Of a stretch of 11,902 nt of DNA, positions 4,472 to 11,677 are shown piece by piece. This DNA comes from a virus (Duplodnaviria > Heunggongvirae > Uroviricota > Caudoviricetes), in the IMG/VR virus record IMGVR_UViG_2778261167_000009. One strand, written 5' to 3'. The number at the start of each line of letters is the position of its first letter. The first letter of the stretch is position 1. The notes below the pieces were generated by a model that ran no database searches, was not told where the DNA came from, and saw nothing but the letters and a program-made list of their open reading frames with translations. Position numbers and translations under genes: made by a program.

Positions 4472-5032
4472 TCACAACCCCGCCAGCTCAGACCAGCGAT
4501 GGCGATTATTTCCTGTCGGACGTAATTCAGGGTGCTGTGCAAACAACGAACGGTGGGCAATCTCCACGCCAGATTCTGGATAAGCAGGCATCGACGTTAT
4601 TGTGATTTCACGGAGTTCAGCGGCGGTTACGGTACGCAAATACGGTTTTTGCGCGATACTCCACTCCTCGCATAATGCGCGAAAACCAAAGCTCATTCCT
4701 GTAATGTCGCCACGCTCCACCAGCGTAAGCACATCTTTTCCAAGCTGGGTATCCGGCGGTGTCAGTTCAAAACGTAACCCGGTGTTATCCTCAGTCAGTA
4801 CCAGAGTGCCGGATTTGGTGCGCCCCAGCAGTCGGGTATAGTCATGCTCATACAGGCAGCGCACATCATTACCCGCCGCCAGATAGTCAGCAAAAGCCCC
4901 CGGCGTGAACTGTTCGCGGAATTCGTCCCAGATAATTTCTGAAAGGCTGTTCCAGCGAACGGCATACCCCACCAGCTTTTTATTGCTGGCGGTCAGTTCA
5001 GATGTGCGGATTTCAAAATCGGTGTTTTTCAT
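4472..5032 (-). CDS. Prohead maturation protease, HK97 family (S78/U35-like)
   Basis: 186-aa translation (KKLVGYAVRWNSLSEII, FTPGAF, LYEHD, LGRTKSGTL, GDITGMSFGF). RBS GGAG sits 8 nt upstream of the ATG at 5030-5032. Confidence 0.9.
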   Translation of the reverse strand: MKNTDFEIRTSELTASNKKLVGYAVRWNSLSEIIWDEFREQFTPGAFADYLAAGNDVRCLYEHDYTRLLGRTKSGTLVLTEDNTGLRFELTPPDTQLGKDVLTLVERGDITGMSFGFRALCEEWSIAQKPYLRTVTAAELREITITSMPAYPESGVEIAHRSLFAQHPELRPTGNNRHRWSELAGL

Positions 5033-5053
5033 CGGTGTACTCCATAAAACTGA

Positions 5054-5074
5054 AAAAGGAGGCCGCAGCCTCCT
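5054..5074 (-). terminator. Terminator-like or attenuator hairpin between the capsid and protease genes
   Basis: On the minus strand: stem AGGAGGC, loop TGCG, stem GCCTCCT (plus 5057-5074), followed by a TTTT run, lying in the 54-bp gap after the major capsid stop. Could raise capsid transcript levels relative to downstream genes. Confidence 0.4.
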
Positions 5075-5086
5075 CCTTACTCATGA

Positions 5087-6256
5087 CTAGCCAGCTTTCA
5101 TTTCCAGAATTTTGATGGCGTTTGAATCCACCACACCACCGCCCAGATATTTATCCGTGTGGACCTTGTAGAATCCGGGTTCAGTAATGTTGTCCGGTCG
5201 GGTGCGAATCCCTGTTACATGATCAACGATGAAATAACCACGACTGAAATCGCCAACCGCTAGCGGTGCTTTTCCTGTGCCGATGTCCGGCATGGACTCC
5301 AAGCAGTAAACAGGACGACCAAGCAACATATCCGGCGCACCTTCTTTAAGGCTGTCGCGCCAGATATAATCGCCGTTCTCATTTTTCAGCTTCTGTAGTG
5401 TCCCTGCCGTGCCCGAGTTCATCACCCAGACGGCATTTTTGCGGTATTTCGCTTTCAGCTTGTAGAGAATGTCGATCAGTTCGTCCGCTGTAATGGCGGT
5501 TCCACTTGCCGCTACCATTTTTTCAATGGTGCCAAAAGCGCGGGTTTTGTCACTGGTCGCCGCACGGGTGTAAGCCATGAAGCCTTTCGGCTTGCCGTTA
5601 CCGTCGCCATTAACAAAATCATCCTCTTCGGTGCTGGCGAACGTGTCGGCAATTTCGGAGGATAACCAGCCCAGAATATCCACCTCTGAAAAATCTAGGA
5701 TTTCCTGCGTGGTTTTCGGGTAGGCGTAGATCGGATTCAGCTTGATGGTTACGCGTTCAATTTTCGGGGTGTTGGTTTCACTGCGTGCGCTGCCTTCTGT
5801 GCCTCGTCCTACAGTTGCGCCGCCAGTGGAAACCAGTTTCTGAAACTCATTTGATTTTGCAGTCTTCACGGTCGCGATCACGCGCATAACACTGTCATCC
5901 TGTAGCTGGCGCATGACTTCGCGATCAAGCTCAGGAATTACGGTATATCCGCCATCCCTGCCGCTGTCAGTGCTGGTGGACAGAGATCGCACATCTCCGG
6001 TTACGATGTAGTTACGCAATTCATCAGATGATAATTTCTGGATGCCCGTTCCTGGCTTGCTGCGTTCTTCATCAGCCACAGACTCGAGGCGGGAAATTTC
6101 TGTGTCGAGGGAGTCGGCTTTTGCACGCAGTTCATCAAACTGTTTGCCCTCGTCATCGTTCAGGCTGCGGTTTTCACTGTCGGCTTTTTCCAGCAGAGAT
6201 CGCATCTGGTTTTTCAGGGCGGTTTTTTGCTGGCGGAGTTCGATTAATTTCTTCAT
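5087..6256 (-). CDS. Major capsid protein, HK97 family, with N-terminal coiled-coil delta/scaffold domain
   Basis: 389-aa translation. The first ~100 residues are charged and coiled-coil-like (KKLIELRQQKTALKNQMRSLLEKADSENRSL...), followed by an HK97-type capsid core (GGYTVIPELDREVMRQL, FMAYTRAATSD, GRPVYCLESMP). Confidence 0.9.
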   Translation of the reverse strand: MKKLIELRQQKTALKNQMRSLLEKADSENRSLNDDEGKQFDELRAKADSLDTEISRLESVADEERSKPGTGIQKLSSDELRNYIVTGDVRSLSTSTDSGRDGGYTVIPELDREVMRQLQDDSVMRVIATVKTAKSNEFQKLVSTGGATVGRGTEGSARSETNTPKIERVTIKLNPIYAYPKTTQEILDFSEVDILGWLSSEIADTFASTEEDDFVNGDGNGKPKGFMAYTRAATSDKTRAFGTIEKMVAASGTAITADELIDILYKLKAKYRKNAVWVMNSGTAGTLQKLKNENGDYIWRDSLKEGAPDMLLGRPVYCLESMPDIGTGKAPLAVGDFSRGYFIVDHVTGIRTRPDNITEPGFYKVHTDKYLGGGVVDSNAIKILEMKAG

Positions 6257-6542: not shown

Positions 6543-7049
6543 ATGAATTTAAGCGCAATGGTATACCCTGATACTTTCATAATTAATGGCGAATCATTCA
6601 GAGGTAAAAGAAACGCAAAAGAAAACAAGGTATTAATTCCATATACAAATGAACCGGAAGTAACTATTGGTCAACACATTATCCAGCGTGTCGGTAAAAA
6701 CGAGATAAATCTAAAAATTATAGATATGAAGTTGCTTCCCAATGGAACCCTCAGACAGGGAACCAATCATCCAAATATGTTGACTCTCTATATTGAAAAT
6801 ATCACGGGAAATGAACATATGACGCCAACTAAAAGTAATACATTTAACATTGGTTCAATTAGTGGTGATCAAGTGCAGATAGGTGAGCATAACCATATGC
6901 TGGTAAACATCAGCATCACTGAACTGGTTGAAAAAGTCGCTAAATCGGGGGATGTACAAGCCAAATCAGTATTAAAGCAGTTACTGGAAAACAGTACCGT
7001 TGCCAGCATTGTTGGGGCTGGCGCAAGTGCCCTAATAGGCTTACTGTAA
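6543..7049 (+). CDS. Hypothetical 168-aa protein, AT-rich cargo/moron gene; unrecognised N-terminal domain and C-terminal hydrophobic glycine-zipper-like tail
   Basis: The only long plus-strand ORF in the core, opposite to all flanking genes and visibly more AT-rich. Good RBS and its own promoter and terminator. Translation ends ...ENSTVASIVGAGASALIGLL. No family recognised. Confidence 0.7.
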   Translation: MNLSAMVYPDTFIINGESFRGKRNAKENKVLIPYTNEPEVTIGQHIIQRVGKNEINLKIIDMKLLPNGTLRQGTNHPNMLTLYIENITGNEHMTPTKSNTFNIGSISGDQVQIGEHNHMLVNISITELVEKVAKSGDVQAKSVLKQLLENSTVASIVGAGASALIGLL

Positions 7050-7051
7050 AA

Positions 7052-7086
7052 AAATGGCCTGGATTTTACCAGGCCTTTATTATTTT
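7052..7086. terminator. Bidirectional rho-independent terminator between convergent genes
   Basis: Stem GGCCTGG (7056-7062), loop ATTTTA, stem CCAGGCC (7069-7075), flanked by an A-run upstream and TTTATTATTTT downstream, so a U-tract follows the hairpin on both strands. Stop codons of the 6543-7049 gene and the 7085-7333 gene abut it. Confidence 0.6.
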
Positions 7087-7333
7087 ACCGTTTCACGGGA
7101 TCGCGCATTCTGCGCCTTATTTTCCACAGATATTCGATCATTGCTTCCACCTGCTCACGGTTGGTTGCGAAAATTTCCCCGGTCAGTGAGCTACGCAGAA
7201 AATCATGATGATCCACAAAAAACAACGCATCGGAAGAAAGCAGACGGCGATATTTTTTTGCTGTCATGGTTTCCAGATCATCAAAATCATGAAACTTTTT
7301 ATGTTGCTGGACTTCTTCAAATGTCACTGGCAT
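7085..7333 (-). CDS. Hypothetical 82-aa protein
   Basis: Translation from the ATG at 7331-7333 (MPVTFEEVQQHKKFHDFDDLETMTAKKYRRLL...), preceded by RBS AGAGGGG. The ORF-track extension to 7381 would overlap the SSB gene. No family recognised. Confidence 0.55.
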   Translation of the reverse strand: MPVTFEEVQQHKKFHDFDDLETMTAKKYRRLLSSDALFFVDHHDFLRSSLTGEIFATNREQVEAMIEYLWKIRRRMRDPVKR

Positions 7334-7349: not shown

Positions 7350-7775
7350 CTAAAACGGTATGTTGTCCCCGTACGGATCATCGTGCTGACCCGTCTGCTG
7401 TTTTGCCCTGTTCAGTGCGTCAGTCGCCTGGCTCTGCTGGCCTTTTTTGCCGTCCGGTCGCACCGTTCGCGCACTGATTACGCTGTCTGCGATAACCTGC
7501 CAGCCTTGCCGCGTTTCGCCGTTCTGGCCTGTCCACTGGCTTACCTGCATGTTACCCACCACGCTCACCAGTTCGCCTTTGTGGTGTTTTGCCAGTGCAT
7601 CGGCCTGTCTGCCAAACGCCAGAACAGAAAGCCACATCGTCACCGCACCATCATCAGCCTGACTGCATGGCAGGGGGACCGCCATACTTACCATCGCCAT
7701 TTGTGTACCCTTGCTGGTGGTCTTTAACTGTGGGTCATTTGTCAGCCGCCCGTAAGCGGCTATCTGTGCTGTCAT
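7350..7775 (-). CDS. ssb: Single-stranded DNA-binding protein (SSB-like OB-fold) with acidic C-terminal tip ...DNIPF
   Basis: 141-aa translation aligns by eye with bacterial SSB (IAAYGRLTNDPQLKTT..., WLSVLAFGRQADALAKHHKGELVSVVGNMQVSQWT...G..R) and ends DDPYGDNIPF, like the host SSB tip DDDIPF. Strong RBS GGAGGG; ATGA overlap with the upstream ORF. Confidence 0.8.
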   Translation of the reverse strand: MTAQIAAYGRLTNDPQLKTTSKGTQMAMVSMAVPLPCSQADDGAVTMWLSVLAFGRQADALAKHHKGELVSVVGNMQVSQWTGQNGETRQGWQVIADSVISARTVRPDGKKGQQSQATDALNRAKQQTGQHDDPYGDNIPF

Positions 7776-8017
7776 GATTCCATCCCTCCGGTGTTAACGT
7801 TGATGGTTGTCACCTGTTCCGCTTCGGCAATCTCCCGCTCTATCAGCGTGGCAAAATTTGCCGCCGCCGTGGTCATGAATGCGCTTATCAGTTCGGAATG
7901 TGCTTTCGCGTATCCTTCCCCGGCGTTGCGGTCGATGATTTTTATCGACACCCTTAACCAGTGTTCCGTCAAATCAAGGGCGTGCGATTGTGATTTTTTT
8001 GTGTGCTTCGCTGTCAC
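7772..8017 (-). CDS. Hypothetical 81-aa protein (GTG start), between ori and ssb
   Basis: ORF starts with GTG at 8015-8017 and has a weak SD. Its TGA overlaps the ssb ATG. No family recognised; could be shorter or non-coding. Confidence 0.35.
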   Translation of the reverse strand: MTAKHTKKSQSHALDLTEHWLRVSIKIIDRNAGEGYAKAHSELISAFMTTAAANFATLIEREIAEAEQVTTINVNTGGMES

Positions 8018-8063
8018 AGGCTTTATCTCACAGCAGTAAATTAAAATTTTTGCGTTTTAACCC

Positions 8064-8301
8064 TTCACCTGTTCACCTTTTGATATTTTCTCTTTTAATT
8101 CATAATGTTAAGGGGTGAACAGTTTCAAAAAAACTATTCACCAACTGTTCACCACTGTTCACCACTGTTCACCCTTGAAGCTCAATAAACAATCAAAAAG
8201 GTGAACAGTGAATAGTTTGGTGAACAGTTCATAAATAACTGTTCACCCTATAATATACTGATATAAAAGATATTTATGACAGGGTGAACAGTGGTGAACA
8301 G
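8064..8301. repeat. Iteron array, candidate origin of replication (P4-type TGTTCACC iterons)
   Basis: Ten exact copies of CTGTTCACC/GGTGAACAG in both orientations (8069, 8114, 8145, 8155, 8165, 8200, 8219, 8239, 8283, 8293) plus variants CTATTCACC (8134) and GTGAATAG (8208). Three are tandem at a 10-bp period (8144-8173). AT-rich spacers lie between them. Immediately 3' of the primase/helicase gene. Confidence 0.6.
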
Positions 8302-8314
8302 TTATTCCATAAGT

Positions 8315-10132
8315 TTAATTTTTGCTATCGTCATTAGTGACCGATACACATGATGGCATCCAGTCTTCTGATTCCTCCGTCAGTGTCACGTTTGAACGCA
8401 AACCGTGCTTCGTTTTCCGTTTCATATACTCCCTGCCATATTCCGCCATTGCCCCCGGCATATCTTTACCGAAGCGCGTCAGTGTTACAGGTTTACCAAA
8501 CCCATGTGCCCTCATATAAGCCAGATAGGCATGATAGAGATACCTGCGTGGGCTGAATGGCACAATTTCAGCATTACCCACTAACAGGCCATCACACATT
8601 ACCGACGCCATGAGATAGCCGCAGAAGTCCACCAGCGAATCCCCCTCTCGCTTTATCGCCAGTGCTTCTTCAGATTTCTGCTGCTCATATAACAGGCGTC
8701 TGGCTTCGTCCTGGTCAGCAAACCGTGTAAGCAGATGGCGAATCACTACCGCCAGCTCACCTTCTATTTTTTCCGCCAGCATTGGATCACGTTCGTTCTC
8801 CGGTACAACTTCCGAAAAATTGAATATCACCCGACGACGTGAGATCCCCCCGCTGCGGTCACTGAATGACATGGCGTTATTGTTAACCGCCAGCACTACT
8901 GCCGGAATACGTGTTGAGTAGGGGGCTTTGTGTTTCGGGTCAATTGCCACCTTGTCACCGCCTGTAATAGCCTTAATCCCTGCCCCATCACCAGCGTAGC
9001 GGGTCATATCCGGCATGATAATCAGCGAAAAGCCAACCACTAACGCGCGTTCCCTTGCATCTTCCAGCGCCTTCATGCTTGCCGATACTGTGTTGGCCTT
9101 ACCCGCCAGCATGGTGCAAATCTCCGCCATCACGCTTTTACCACTTCCCCCTGGACCTGTTACCTCAATGAATAACTGCCAGTCGTACCGGTTCGCCAGC
9201 ACCATGAATAATGCAGCCAGTACGCGATCCGCCTTGCGGTCATTCTCAGCCACCGAACGGCGTAACCACTTCCAGAAATTCGGCGCATGTGTTGCCAGCG
9301 TTTCCCCCTCTGCTGGTGGGCTGAAAGGTAATTCACTGGCAATTAACAACCAGTCGTTTTTGTTATGCTCCCGAAAATTACCTGTTCTGGTATCAAATAC
9401 CCCGTTACTGAATCCAATCAGGTTACGGGCTGTATTCCCCATTACAGGCAAACTTAACTTCATGGTATCGACCGCTGATTTAATAGCGTTCTGTGAATAG
9501 CTGATCTCCGCATCAATGAAAATCTGCGCCATAGCACGCTGTAACTCTTTATCCTGAACCGGCTCCCATACAACGCCGTTGTAATGGTGAACAGTGTCAG
9601 AGTCAGCATGAATCGCCAGTTCACCACCATAATGTGCCAGGAGAACTTCGCCGCGTTGACTTGCTCCCATCTGGTTAAGCGCCAGTGATGAAGCGTTATC
9701 GTCTTTTACCCGCTCTTTTTTCTTTACAGGCAGTTCAACTACCTTTTTCTTTTCCGCCAGCTCTCCCCGCTCACGCTCCAGATATTCGCGCCAGTTCTCC
9801 CGTTTCTGGCTGTGCATTCCTTCAGGGTAATAATCAGCATCCCTGACACCTGCCGCTGCCAGTTTCTGCCCGATGGTATTAACAAGCACCGGACGCAATA
9901 ACCCCGCCTGATAGAGACGCACGCGATAGCGTCCGTCCGGTACGATTTGCAGGTTGTCCAGTTCGGCAAGTTGTTGCTCTCCAAGCCAGACAGGTGGCAC
10001 GTTATCGCCTGCCAGTCGCCCGTCCTGTTCCTGCCACTGCTTCGCATGTGCCCACGCATCACTACCCGCAAAAATGATGACTTCCGTCATTTTGTCACGC
10101 GGCTGGTGTTTTAAATTTGGCGCTTTTTTCAT
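8315..10132 (-). CDS. Replication protein: P4 alpha-like primase/helicase (D5-N-like domain plus SF3-type P-loop NTPase)
   Basis: About 605 aa from the ATG at 10130-10132 (MKKAPNL...) with RBS GGAGAGAG. Walker A VTGPGGSGKS, Walker B-like LIIMPD, and a D5-N-like central region (NLIGFSNGVFDTRTGNFREH). The ATG overlaps the upstream ORF stop (ATGA). The ORF-track start at 10147 is GTG. Confidence 0.9.
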   Translation of the reverse strand: MKKAPNLKHQPRDKMTEVIIFAGSDAWAHAKQWQEQDGRLAGDNVPPVWLGEQQLAELDNLQIVPDGRYRVRLYQAGLLRPVLVNTIGQKLAAAGVRDADYYPEGMHSQKRENWREYLERERGELAEKKKVVELPVKKKERVKDDNASSLALNQMGASQRGEVLLAHYGGELAIHADSDTVHHYNGVVWEPVQDKELQRAMAQIFIDAEISYSQNAIKSAVDTMKLSLPVMGNTARNLIGFSNGVFDTRTGNFREHNKNDWLLIASELPFSPPAEGETLATHAPNFWKWLRRSVAENDRKADRVLAALFMVLANRYDWQLFIEVTGPGGSGKSVMAEICTMLAGKANTVSASMKALEDARERALVVGFSLIIMPDMTRYAGDGAGIKAITGGDKVAIDPKHKAPYSTRIPAVVLAVNNNAMSFSDRSGGISRRRVIFNFSEVVPENERDPMLAEKIEGELAVVIRHLLTRFADQDEARRLLYEQQKSEEALAIKREGDSLVDFCGYLMASVMCDGLLVGNAEIVPFSPRRYLYHAYLAYMRAHGFGKPVTLTRFGKDMPGAMAEYGREYMKRKTKHGLRSNVTLTEESEDWMPSCVSVTNDDSKN

Positions 10133-10428
10133 TTCTGCTCTCTCCACGCGGCAATCATGTTTTTCAGTTCCTGTAGTTTTTTATCCACATCCACACGTGA
10201 CACATGGTTATTTCTGGAAGGCGGTATTTCCCGCCGGAATCTGCAAATAAAGATCTCCACGTTCAGCGAGCTATGAAATGAATAGCCATCACGAATAAAG
10301 TACACACGGTCAAACATTATCGATTTTACTGTTACTCTGTTGCCGTTCTTATCCCGATAAATAGCGCCGGGGATAATTTTGGGATGTGCATAACCGCTGG
10401 CAGTCAAGCCAGATAAATACGTTCTCAT
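10129..10428 (-). CDS. Hypothetical 99-aa protein, translationally coupled to the primase/helicase
   Basis: Complete ORF with ATG at 10426-10428 and RBS GGGGA; TGA overlaps the primase ATG. No family recognised. Confidence 0.6.
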   Translation of the reverse strand: MRTYLSGLTASGYAHPKIIPGAIYRDKNGNRVTVKSIMFDRVYFIRDGYSFHSSLNVEIFICRFRREIPPSRNNHVSRVDVDKKLQELKNMIAAWREQK

Positions 10429-10434
10429 GATTAT

Positions 10435-10755
10435 TTATCCCCGATTTGAATCAGTATTCGCTTTCTTTATGGCATTTAATGCATCTGTGGCATTTTCAAT
10501 GGTGCACCGTAACGAAATATCAAAATGTCCAAGCATTGCCAGTAACAAACCGATATTACCCATATCAATGCGCATGGCCTTTTCGTCATATTCCTCATTT
10601 TCTGACGCATGCCACATCAGGCTACCAATTGACGCAACAGCCATTGATATATTGTCAGTAGCCCCATCCGCAGCGGAATAAACCTTTTTAGCAATATCAT
10701 GCTCACAGTTAAAATGCGGATTAATCAGGTACTGGTAATTTGACATATCAGGCAT
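10435..10755 (-). CDS. Hypothetical 106-aa protein
   Basis: Complete ORF with ATG at 10753-10755 and RBS AGGGGG; AT-rich. No family recognised. Confidence 0.6.
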   Translation of the reverse strand: MPDMSNYQYLINPHFNCEHDIAKKVYSAADGATDNISMAVASIGSLMWHASENEEYDEKAMRIDMGNIGLLLAMLGHFDISLRCTIENATDALNAIKKANTDSNRG

Positions 10756-10951
10756 GGCACACCCCCTGACGAATACGGGCGGCGAATACCATCACGCAGC
10801 CAGCCGGGGATTGCTGGCGTGCTTCCTGTTCGCTGGTGGCCACGATGTGAATCACGCGCGGTTGTGCCGTGCTCAGGGCGATAAAACGCCAGATGAATTT
10901 ATTCAGGTTGTGCGAGTCCCGCCCTTGCGGGTGTGTGGTATGATTTAACAT
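10748..10951 (-). CDS. Candidate 67-aa first gene of the leftward operon
   Basis: This is the C-terminal in-frame part of the spurious 306-aa ORF. ATG at 10949-10951 is preceded by GAGGT; stop at 10748-10750 overlaps the next gene start. Translation MLNHTTHPQGRDSHNLNKFIWRFIALSTAQPRVIHIVATSEQEARQQ... is plausible but unrecognised. Confidence 0.35.
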   Translation of the reverse strand: MLNHTTHPQGRDSHNLNKFIWRFIALSTAQPRVIHIVATSEQEARQQSPAGCVMVFAARIRQGVCHA

Positions 10952-11047
10952 AGCTACCTCGATACTTCTGCTATCGTTGGTGGTTAGAAGCCCGGTTAGT
11001 GTTAGCGCACTGCCGGGTTTCGTCGTTTCTGCACCTTGCATCAACAA

Positions 11048-11100
11048 GGTGTTAAACACCAATTTAAGCCTAGGTGTTAAACACGTCAAGTGTTGAACAC
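11048..11100. promoter_or_regulatory. Three palindromic operator-like sites overlapping a putative promoter for the plus-strand small-gene module
   Basis: GGTGTTAAACACC (11048-11060), GGTGTTAAACACG (11073-11085), GTGTTGAACAC (11090-11100). The last overlaps a -35-like TTGAAC (11093-11098), with 17-bp spacer and -10-like CATACT (11116-11121). GGTTAG direct repeats lie upstream (10982, 10994, 11000). Confidence 0.45.
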
Positions 11101-11150
11101 TTATTTTTTTTCCTGCATACTGCATTTGTTTTTTGTAAGGAGTACACAAC

Positions 11151-11330
11151 ATGGCGACAAAAGCAGTAAACGCAAAATCACAAACAGTTGCGGCAAGGGT
11201 TCCGCATGAAGTTATGAACAATGTTGAGGCGGTAAAAATGCCTGGTGAAAGTACAGGGCAGTTTGTAACAGCAGCATTAAAGCGAGAAGTTGAATACCGC
11301 CAGCATCGCAAGGCCAAAGAGCAGGAGTAA
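11151..11330 (+). CDS. Arc/MetJ-like ribbon-helix-helix DNA-binding protein, 59 aa
   Basis: Below the ORF-track size cutoff. Strong RBS AAGGAG (11137-11142) 8 nt before the ATG. Translation MATKAVNAKSQTVAARVPHEVMNNVEAVKMPGESTGQFVTAALKREVEYRQHRKAKEQE has a beta-strand then two helices in the RHH pattern. Confidence 0.6.
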   Translation: MATKAVNAKSQTVAARVPHEVMNNVEAVKMPGESTGQFVTAALKREVEYRQHRKAKEQE

Positions 11331-11387
11331 CCATCACCAGCGCCGTGGTGCGGTGAACTGTGGCGCACAGGGTTACAGGTATCTACG

Positions 11388-11567
11388 ATGACTGACAAAT
11401 CATTAAAGAAATTATCCTCATCCAAGAAAAAACAACGCAAAAATGCGGTAAACGAACATGAACCGGAGAGATTCGCACCATGTGCGTTTATCCTTGAGAA
11501 GTACCTTAAAGAGTATTCTAGGAAAATACGCTCATTGCAGGCATGGCAGCGAATCGAGCCAGACTGA
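11388..11567 (+). CDS. Hypothetical small basic protein, 59 aa
   Basis: Below the ORF-track cutoff. ATG at 11388 with weak SD (AGGT); translation MTDKSLKKLSSSKKKQRKNAVNEHEPERFAPCAFILEKYLKEYSRKIRSLQAWQRIEPD. Lies between the RHH gene and the plus-strand terminator. Confidence 0.4.
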   Translation: MTDKSLKKLSSSKKKQRKNAVNEHEPERFAPCAFILEKYLKEYSRKIRSLQAWQRIEPD

Positions 11568-11631
11568 TAGCATTGCCCACTAGCCGACAACCTGGTATTC
11601 TGGATATGCTCAAGTTTAGTGTTATGCCACT

Positions 11632-11660
11632 GGCGACCGCCCCCGGTCGCCTTTGTTTTA
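11632..11660 (+). terminator. Rho-independent terminator ending the plus-strand small-gene module
   Basis: Stem GGCGACCG, loop CCCC, stem CGGTCGCC (11632-11651), followed by TTTGTTTTA. It sits inside the 306-aa minus-strand ORF, arguing that ORF is not real. Confidence 0.6.
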
Positions 11661-11677
11661 TGTGTCATAGCTCCCCC

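Follow-up and report, generated by a model that had tools for sequence, protein, structure and literature searches.

A short SSB gene beside the candidate replication origin of a capsid-forming PICI of Escherichia coli

[quoted passage not shown] Nevertheless, in a quarter of complete E. coli genomes a satellite supplies a second SSB gene, which is under purifying selection and lies beside the presumed origin of its island, and the carriers include the experimentally tractable prototype EcCIEDL933. The locus described here therefore raises the question of why a satellite able to use the host SSB keeps its own, a question that stands equally for plasmid-borne ssb genes. The gene lies on a stretch of viral DNA of 11,902 nucleotides (hereafter the window; IMG/VR record IMGVR_UViG_2778261167_000009), whose features are collected in Table 1.

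Table 1. Position of ssb, of the parts of its product and of the neighbouring replication features in the window
Feature	Position	Strand	Description
ssb	7350..7775	-	141 aa plus stop codon, ATG start; identical to WP_096925741.1
OB-fold ssDNA-binding domain (predicted)	7467..7775	-	residues 1-103; AF2, Foldseek, BLASTP, alignment conservation
Disordered linker	7380..7466	-	residues 104-132, 29 aa; charged, weakly basic; indel-variable among homologues
C-terminal tip DPYGDNIPF	7353..7379	-	residues 133-141; presumed docking motif for SSB-interacting proteins
orf81	7772..8017	-	small helical protein; directly upstream of ssb; sequence, homologues, AF2
orf82	7085..7333	-	small ORF closing the orf81-ssb-orf82 unit; annotated in the B1W1 island (L001); phrog_1957; 45% homologue in the F6667 island (L004)
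Probable terminator of the replication operon	7056..7075	.	G+C-rich hairpin with T runs on both strands; after orf82
Probable island origin (candidate)	8060..8305	.	11 GGTGAACAG iterons, 10 exact, in both orientations around AT-rich DNA
Primase-helicase	8315..10132	-	D5_N, DUF5906 and Pox_D5 domains; P4-family primase C-terminus
DUF4222 protein	10129..10428	-	always immediately upstream of the replicase in the compared islands

The ORF at 7350-7775 encodes a genuine, selectively maintained SSB of the bacterial type. The initial annotation had described an ORF of 141 aa ending in ...DDPYGDNIPF, and this is what is read from the minus strand; RefSeq holds the identical protein under the name 'single-stranded DNA-binding protein'. 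The product clears the curated cut-offs of both Pfam SSB PF00436 (E=1.2e-16, 61.1 bits against a cut-off of 26) and TIGR00621 (64.6 bits against 53.95), which identifies it as a bacterial-type SSB, and it matched PHROG 44, 'single strand DNA binding protein', with E=2e-38. When PDB sequences were searched the best match was the Thermus protein 2CWA (E=3.8e-12), E. coli 1EQQ was found at E=1.7e-5, and the sole protein other than an SSB was a catalase at E=0.05.

An SSB-type OB-fold had also been proposed, with alignment and structure prediction against bacterial and phage SSBs suggested as a check. Both were carried out, and the Pfam and TIGR00621 matches, the AlphaFold2 (AF2) model and the Foldseek search all support the OB fold and an SSB identity. 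The AF2 model, built with 43 homologues, displays a confident barrel over residues 1-103 (block mean pLDDT 71-91) with strands at 2-11, 16-19, 25-35 and 45-54, a helix at 55-62 and strands at 69-82 and 88-101; the helix lies between strands 3 and 4 of the OB-fold beta-barrel, which it caps. All 50 PDB matches listed by Foldseek were bacterial SSBs (best E=1.7e-09, TM 0.77, target-normalised), and 7YM1 and 5XGT were 29-30% identical to the island protein. The best sequence and structure matches of the OB domain are Firmicute and Thermus SSBs (B. subtilis SsbA 6BHW, S. aureus SsbA 5XGT and Thermus 2CWA). These proteins and the SSBs of Gram-positive phages are distant relatives that belong to other hosts and other types of element.

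E. coli SSB (P0AGE0; 1EQQ/1EYG) resembles the island protein in having an OB fold, a disordered tail and an acidic-aromatic ...D-x-I-P-F tip. The two OB domains are 24% identical by BLASTP, and the L23 loop of the island protein is 3 residues shorter. Three of the four aromatic positions that stack on ssDNA in E. coli SSB (W40, W54, F60 and W88) are kept: in the BLASTP alignment W54, F60 and W88 correspond to W48, F54 and W81, which are 90-100% conserved among homologues, whereas W40 is replaced by a conserved cysteine, C37. In the same alignment H55 becomes L49. The island protein probably binds ssDNA, and it may do so with high affinity as a homotetramer of four OB folds, as bacterial-type SSBs do.

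The tail (residues 104-141) has pLDDT values below 50 in the AF2 model, which indicates disorder. For comparison with the architecture of E. coli SSB (PMC7145534) the tip was taken as the last 9 residues, as in the host protein, and this sets the linker at residues 104-132. The initial annotation had presented the linker as the usual Gly/Pro/Gln-rich one reduced to about 25 residues. It is indeed short, with 29 residues where E. coli SSB has 56, and the earlier figure was roughly right, but its composition is not that of a merely shortened Gly/Pro/Gln linker: Gly, Pro and Gln together make up 34% of it as against 66% in E. coli SSB, and 8 of its 29 residues are charged as against 3 of 56. Close homologues have a 13-aa deletion or insertions of 8-9 aa in the linker and nonetheless keep ...D-x-I-P-F, a behaviour expected of a flexible tether bearing a functional docking motif. 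Across the 43 homologues D137 and F141 never vary, and I139 and P140 reach 90% conservation or more. A tally of tips among 120 hits likewise showed IPF to be conserved.

Like the E. coli tip MDFDDDIPF, the island tip has a terminal Phe (Phe141), a penultimate Pro (Pro140), an Asp at position -5 (Asp137) and an aromatic residue at -7. It differs at -4 and -6, where Asn and Gly stand in place of the Asp or Glu of host SSB and of the wider clade, and thus has 2 acidic residues among the last 9 as against 4 in E. coli. RecO, PriA, chi and PriC are all bound by the nine-residue tip of E. coli SSB by itself (PMC7145534). Its partners accommodate the terminal Phe in a pocket, the carboxylate at a basic lip and the Asp residues along a basic ridge (PMC10164576), and charging or shortening the E. 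coli linker alters cooperativity, accessibility of the tip and access of partners (PMC7145534). It is plausible, judging from the residues kept and lost, that the island SSB has a working tip of altered affinity; as no more than 2 of the last 9 residues are acidic, affinity for host partners could be weak.

A variant of the tip was observed in the PICI of E. coli O157:H7 F6667 (locus L004), whose SSB (9898-10308, WP_000126695.1) ends in ...DDISF. This is the penultimate Pro-to-Ser change of E. coli ssb-113, which greatly weakens partner binding (PMC10164576). The exact ...DDISF sequence occurs in at least 1000 contigs and is fixed in a widely sequenced O157:H7 lineage, while a sister allele (L002), 98% identical to the ...DDISF copy, retains ...DDIPF. 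The fixation of ...DDISF in O157:H7 indicates that a working tip is not universally required.

Pairwise comparison of divergent island copies gave an omega of 0.13-0.23 on the OB domain at dS of 0.4-0.9, which denotes purifying selection and rules out a pseudogene or decaying gene; in the alignable part of the tail, too, dN/dS stayed below 0.4 in all comparisons that allowed dS to be estimated. When 1.84 billion representative sequences were searched exhaustively, 331 proteins with E <1e-10 were returned. Among the best 150 of these 331, 120 were at least 115 aa long; 47 of these end in Pro-Phe, with a median length of 143 aa and the tip consensus P-F-D-D-[DE]-I-P-F. On this sequence evidence, short length and the IPF tip are ancestral traits of a wide clade of mobile-element SSBs, and being clade-wide they represent neither an adaptation of the island in the window nor a recent copy of host ssb. 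Two descriptions in the initial annotation are corrected accordingly. The protein called a compact, island-encoded SSB is short, but its compactness is the norm of the clade and the gene is not specific to this island. Similarly, the tip resembles that of the host in its IPF end, aromatic -7 and Asp -5, as had been claimed, but it was not kept from the host, being ancestral to a clade whose OB domain, in the island protein, has the low identity to host SSB given above.

Other origins of the gene were considered and rejected. Derivation from the host is ruled out by that same 24% identity of the OB domain and by the higher scores of Thermus and Firmicute SSBs in the PDB sequence search. Acquisition from a known coliphage is ruled out as well, since none of 50,697 phage records reached 60% identity; the best phage hits listed were SSBs of Staphylococcus, Streptococcus and Geobacillus phages at ~30% identity. 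The plasmid hits of at least 60% identity that we inspected were PICI-like loci. A distant member of the clade was seen on a metagenome contig of 16.4 kb (L008), whose cargo comprises an integrase, a RepA-like AAA_25 helicase, Dam and a short SSB (51% identical, FDDAIPF tip). This contig repeats itself perfectly in tandem every 9605 bp, which suggests that the element of ~9.6 kb is probably circular.

The initial annotation had taken the carrier of the gene for a satellite. This proved correct, and more specifically the gene layout and the match to EcCIEDL933 identify the element as a capsid-forming PICI (cf-PICI), a phage satellite of E. coli. The genes of the window are arranged in the order TerL, TerS, HNH, head-tail connector, portal, prohead protease and HK97 capsid, followed by orf168 on the plus strand and then by orf82, SSB, orf81, a gap, primase-helicase, DUF4222, small ORFs and AlpA. 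An island of ~13 kb between clpS and cspD in E. coli B1W1 (L001) carries an ssb copy that is 99.5% identical; it has a tyrosine integrase and is devoid of tail and lysis genes, a gene content that corresponds to cf-PICI architecture. Between them the window and the B1W1 island present the features by which cf-PICIs are recognized, namely an integrase, AlpA, a primase, HK97 head genes of their own, TerS/TerL, no tail or lysis genes and a size of ~13 kb. The prototype EcCIEDL933 sits between phoQ and roxA in EDL933 and has the same layout as the window island, with TerL DNA that is ~92% identical.

Within this element ssb belongs to a replication module that reads DUF4222, primase-helicase, probable iteron origin, orf81, SSB, orf82 and terminator. 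The gap between the primase and orf81 measures 300 bp with a GC content of 0.33 and houses the candidate origin. GGTGAACAG has 17 matches in the whole window against 2.4 expected, a number reached by none of 200 shuffles, and the gap fits the published layout in which the PICI origin lies downstream of pri (PMC10111431). The B1W1 island has one 10-bp iteron copy fewer in a tandem run (two, against three at 8145-8173 of the window), indicating that iteron number varies between near-identical islands.

The TGA stop codon of orf81 overlaps the ATG of ssb as ATGA and a GGAGGG Shine-Dalgarno sequence lies 8 nt upstream of the ssb start, so translation of the two genes is probably coupled. A search for a sigma-70-like promoter upstream of orf81 found none, which suggests that orf81, ssb and orf82 are probably read through from the early operon. 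In L002, L004 and L006 the gene directly upstream of ssb is an orf81 homologue with 76-81% identity, and orf81 accompanies ssb in 5 of 7 related loci as well as in the window. The family is narrow, comprising 153 hypothetical proteins, and all the listed hits that carry an organism name come from Escherichia, Shigella or Citrobacter. Searches of Pfam, NCBIfam and PADLOC gave no match to orf81, and the AF2 model displays only a helical hairpin of low confidence (pLDDT 66). The orf81 product may be a partner of SSB.

Residues 1-~123 of the primase (9760-10132, minus strand) share 55-76% identity with the N-termini of replicases that are otherwise different. These are RepA-family helicase and DUF927 replicases of other islands (for example 11789-12157 in L004 and 12489-12797 in L005). 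The first 100-123 residues had no match in Pfam and residues 1-154 none among PDB sequences. As this N-terminal domain is shared though the iterons differ, it is a shuffled domain and not the part that reads the iterons.

The distribution of ssb was then compared with that of the cf-PICI. Of 5426 complete E. coli genomes, 1309 hold the ssb DNA, with as many as six places in one genome, and it carries an annotation as SSB there, whereas TerL of the cf-PICI type of the window is found in 534. This gap is explained by the presence of ssb in other contexts, which were sampled at lower identity. In O157:H7 F6667 the gene lies in a classical PICI, whose RepA-family helicase is accompanied by a lambda-like capsid gene and TerS; a second context is an IS-decayed island whose replicase is of the DUF927 type; and L006 is a PICI with ssb inserted in the capsid gene of a lambdoid prophage. 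The idea that ssb is specific to capsid-forming islands is thus ruled out by its occurrence in classical and helper-embedded PICIs and by the two genome counts. In L006 the major capsid gene is split into pseudogene halves at 4772-5560 and 16869-17114 and the island holds a DUF262/HEPN pair, a configuration that corresponds to the 'helper-embedded PICI' type of PMC10111431. A scan of genome contigs with peptide patterns derived from the SSB alignment recovered a single locus, in E. albertii, the patterns being too narrow.

In seven islands, including EcCIEDL933 and another cf-PICI, we found the same order of DUF4222, replicase, AT-rich iteron gap, orf81 (when present) and SSB. The replicases of ssb-bearing islands are of three types (D5/DUF5906, DUF927 and RepA-family helicase) and the islands have four different iterons (GGTGAACAG, GGTAGACA, TGGGACAAG and AAAAGTGAGG), with SSBs that are 65-87% and orf81 products that are 76-81% identical. 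The recurrence of one cassette with differing replicases and iterons indicates that SSB belongs to a generic module, and the three replicase types and four iterons rule out that it is the specific partner of one initiator. Not all PICIs carry ssb, and some islands are devoid of orf81. At the phoQ/roxA site two O157:H7 strains hold different islands, a classical PICI with TerS only in F6667 (L004) and a cf-PICI with a DUF927 replicase and a full HK97 head module in EDL933 (L007). Their integrases are nearly the same and their HTH regulators identical, which shows that modules have been exchanged behind a shared end for integration and regulation.

The closest known relative is the SSB of EcCIEDL933 (WP_000126692.1, E. 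coli O157:H7 EDL933), which shares 65% identity and the OB domain with the island protein and ends in DDPYGDGIPF. As in the window, DUF4222, replicase, origin gap, small ORF and SSB are followed there by the capsid module; the differences lie in a linker of 24 aa that is an indel variant, in a DUF927 replicase in place of D5/DUF5906 and in other iterons. Among the genes of Gram-negative PICIs, 'Primase, SSB and DUF5906' have been assigned to the Replication category, and they colocalise with mapped origins (PMC10111431, 2023). Our search of the cf-PICI literature found no mention of ssb, the mutations described there being in packaging genes only, and our search of the literature on PICI ssb found no experiment. 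The gene already has its annotation and figures in the literature among the replication genes of satellites, and its identification is correct but ordinary; beyond correct annotation the finding matters little.

What the gene does for the island is best accounted for, we believe, by a role in the island's own replication: the SSB probably coats ssDNA, recruits host replisome and restart factors through its tip and adds SSB capacity during co-replication with the helper. After induction ssb would be transcribed with the early and replication genes and its translation coupled to that of orf81. The OB domain would then coat ssDNA exposed by the island primase-helicase at the adjacent iteron origin, and the ...D-x-I-P-F tip, on its short flexible tether, would dock host SSB-interacting proteins, for example the chi subunit of Pol III and PriA. 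Through the docked SSB-interacting proteins the host replisome would come to copy the island, and SSB capacity would be augmented while helper phage and island replicate together. The analysis shows SSB family membership, the fold, a disordered tail, tip conservation, purifying selection and a fixed position beside origin and replicase; ssDNA binding, oligomeric state, the contacts between tip and partners, the timing of expression and any benefit to replication are inferred. Support of its own replication was one of the two roles suggested in the initial annotation, and it fits the fixed position of ssb beside the presumed island origin and the replicase. If such a benefit is real, ssb would add a layer of replication support or of resource competition to the biology of satellite, helper and host.

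The other role suggested at the outset was competition. The island SSB could divert host SSB-interacting proteins or helper replication and recombination proteins, or coat helper ssDNA non-productively, and so bias resources to the satellite. Satellites commonly interfere with their helpers, the tip is conserved, the charged linker is unlike that of the host, in which linker changes have the effects described above (PMC7145534), and for one phage SSB-like protein that bears a C-tip a disturbance of host ssDNA metabolism has been proposed (10.64898/2026.04.29.721553). We nevertheless regard interference as unlikely, for ssb lies in the replication module and not among packaging or interference genes, it travels with origin and replicase across islands of differing packaging strategy, and with its less acidic tip it should be a poor competitor of host SSB.

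Still less probable is a role away from the fork, in which the SSB would shield satellite ssDNA from host nucleases or modulate a defence that senses SSB or ssDNA. Phage SSB-like proteins with a C-tip do trigger a defence system (10.64898/2026.04.29.721553), PICIs often carry defence cargo, of which the DUF262/HEPN pair of L006 is an example, and the SSBs of plasmid leading regions act at entry of the element (PMC9849209). A parallel is Ssb^F of the F plasmid, like the island SSB a mobile-element paralogue with a host-compatible tip that persists despite an essential host ssb, and it partially complements chromosomal ssb mutations (PMC9849209). Ssb^F acts at the entry of transferred ssDNA in conjugation (PMC9849209) and is not close in sequence, whereas island ssb lies beside a probable theta-type iteron origin in a satellite packaged as dsDNA. 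Since terminase would package cf-PICI DNA as dsDNA, no ssDNA stage is expected at entry, and the synteny of ssb is with replicase and origin. PADLOC gave no hits for SSB or its small neighbours, and on that ground the idea of ssb as a defence gene in its own right was rejected.

The gene could also be a dispensable passenger, that is a functional SSB that hitch-hikes with the replication module and brings no measurable benefit as host SSB suffices. The cell contains plenty of SSB of its own, which other satellites and lambdoid phages use. Many PICIs are devoid of ssb and some of orf81 (ssb being found in 1309 genomes, with PICIs sampled in part), and the ssb-113-like allele is fixed in O157:H7. 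Against this stand the strong purifying selection over dS of up to 0.9, the retention of the tip across linker indels and the survival of the cassette through repeated module shuffling, and we consider a passenger improbable.

A more specialised form of the replication role is conceivable, to which we give little weight. Its less acidic tip and short charged tether may make the PICI SSB, instead of a simple spare copy of host SSB, a hub that selects a subset of host partners, it may dock the N-terminal domain of ~100-120 residues common to PICI replicases that are otherwise unrelated (D5/DUF5906, DUF927 and RepA-type), and with co-translated orf81 it might form a portable 'replisome adaptor' cassette. 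Were this so, any island initiator could capture the host polymerase, and the ...ISF protein of O157:H7 would be a natural tip-dead variant.

Some minor observations concern the rest of the window. An Rfam search of the window gave no match. The mechanical ORF list includes an ORF of 306 aa at 10748-11668 (minus strand) that is absent from the annotation of a near-identical genome, where the same stretch is occupied by a short minus-strand Icd-like gene and, on the plus strand, by YlcI/YnfO with a small ORF; the 306-aa ORF is probably spurious. Lastly, orf168 (6543-7049, plus strand, GC 0.37) stands alone on the plus strand where the replication and capsid modules adjoin. It had no match in Pfam, NCBIfam or PADLOC, only phrog_5789 of unknown function, and it may be accessory cargo, with the bidirectional hairpin at 7056-7075 as its boundary.
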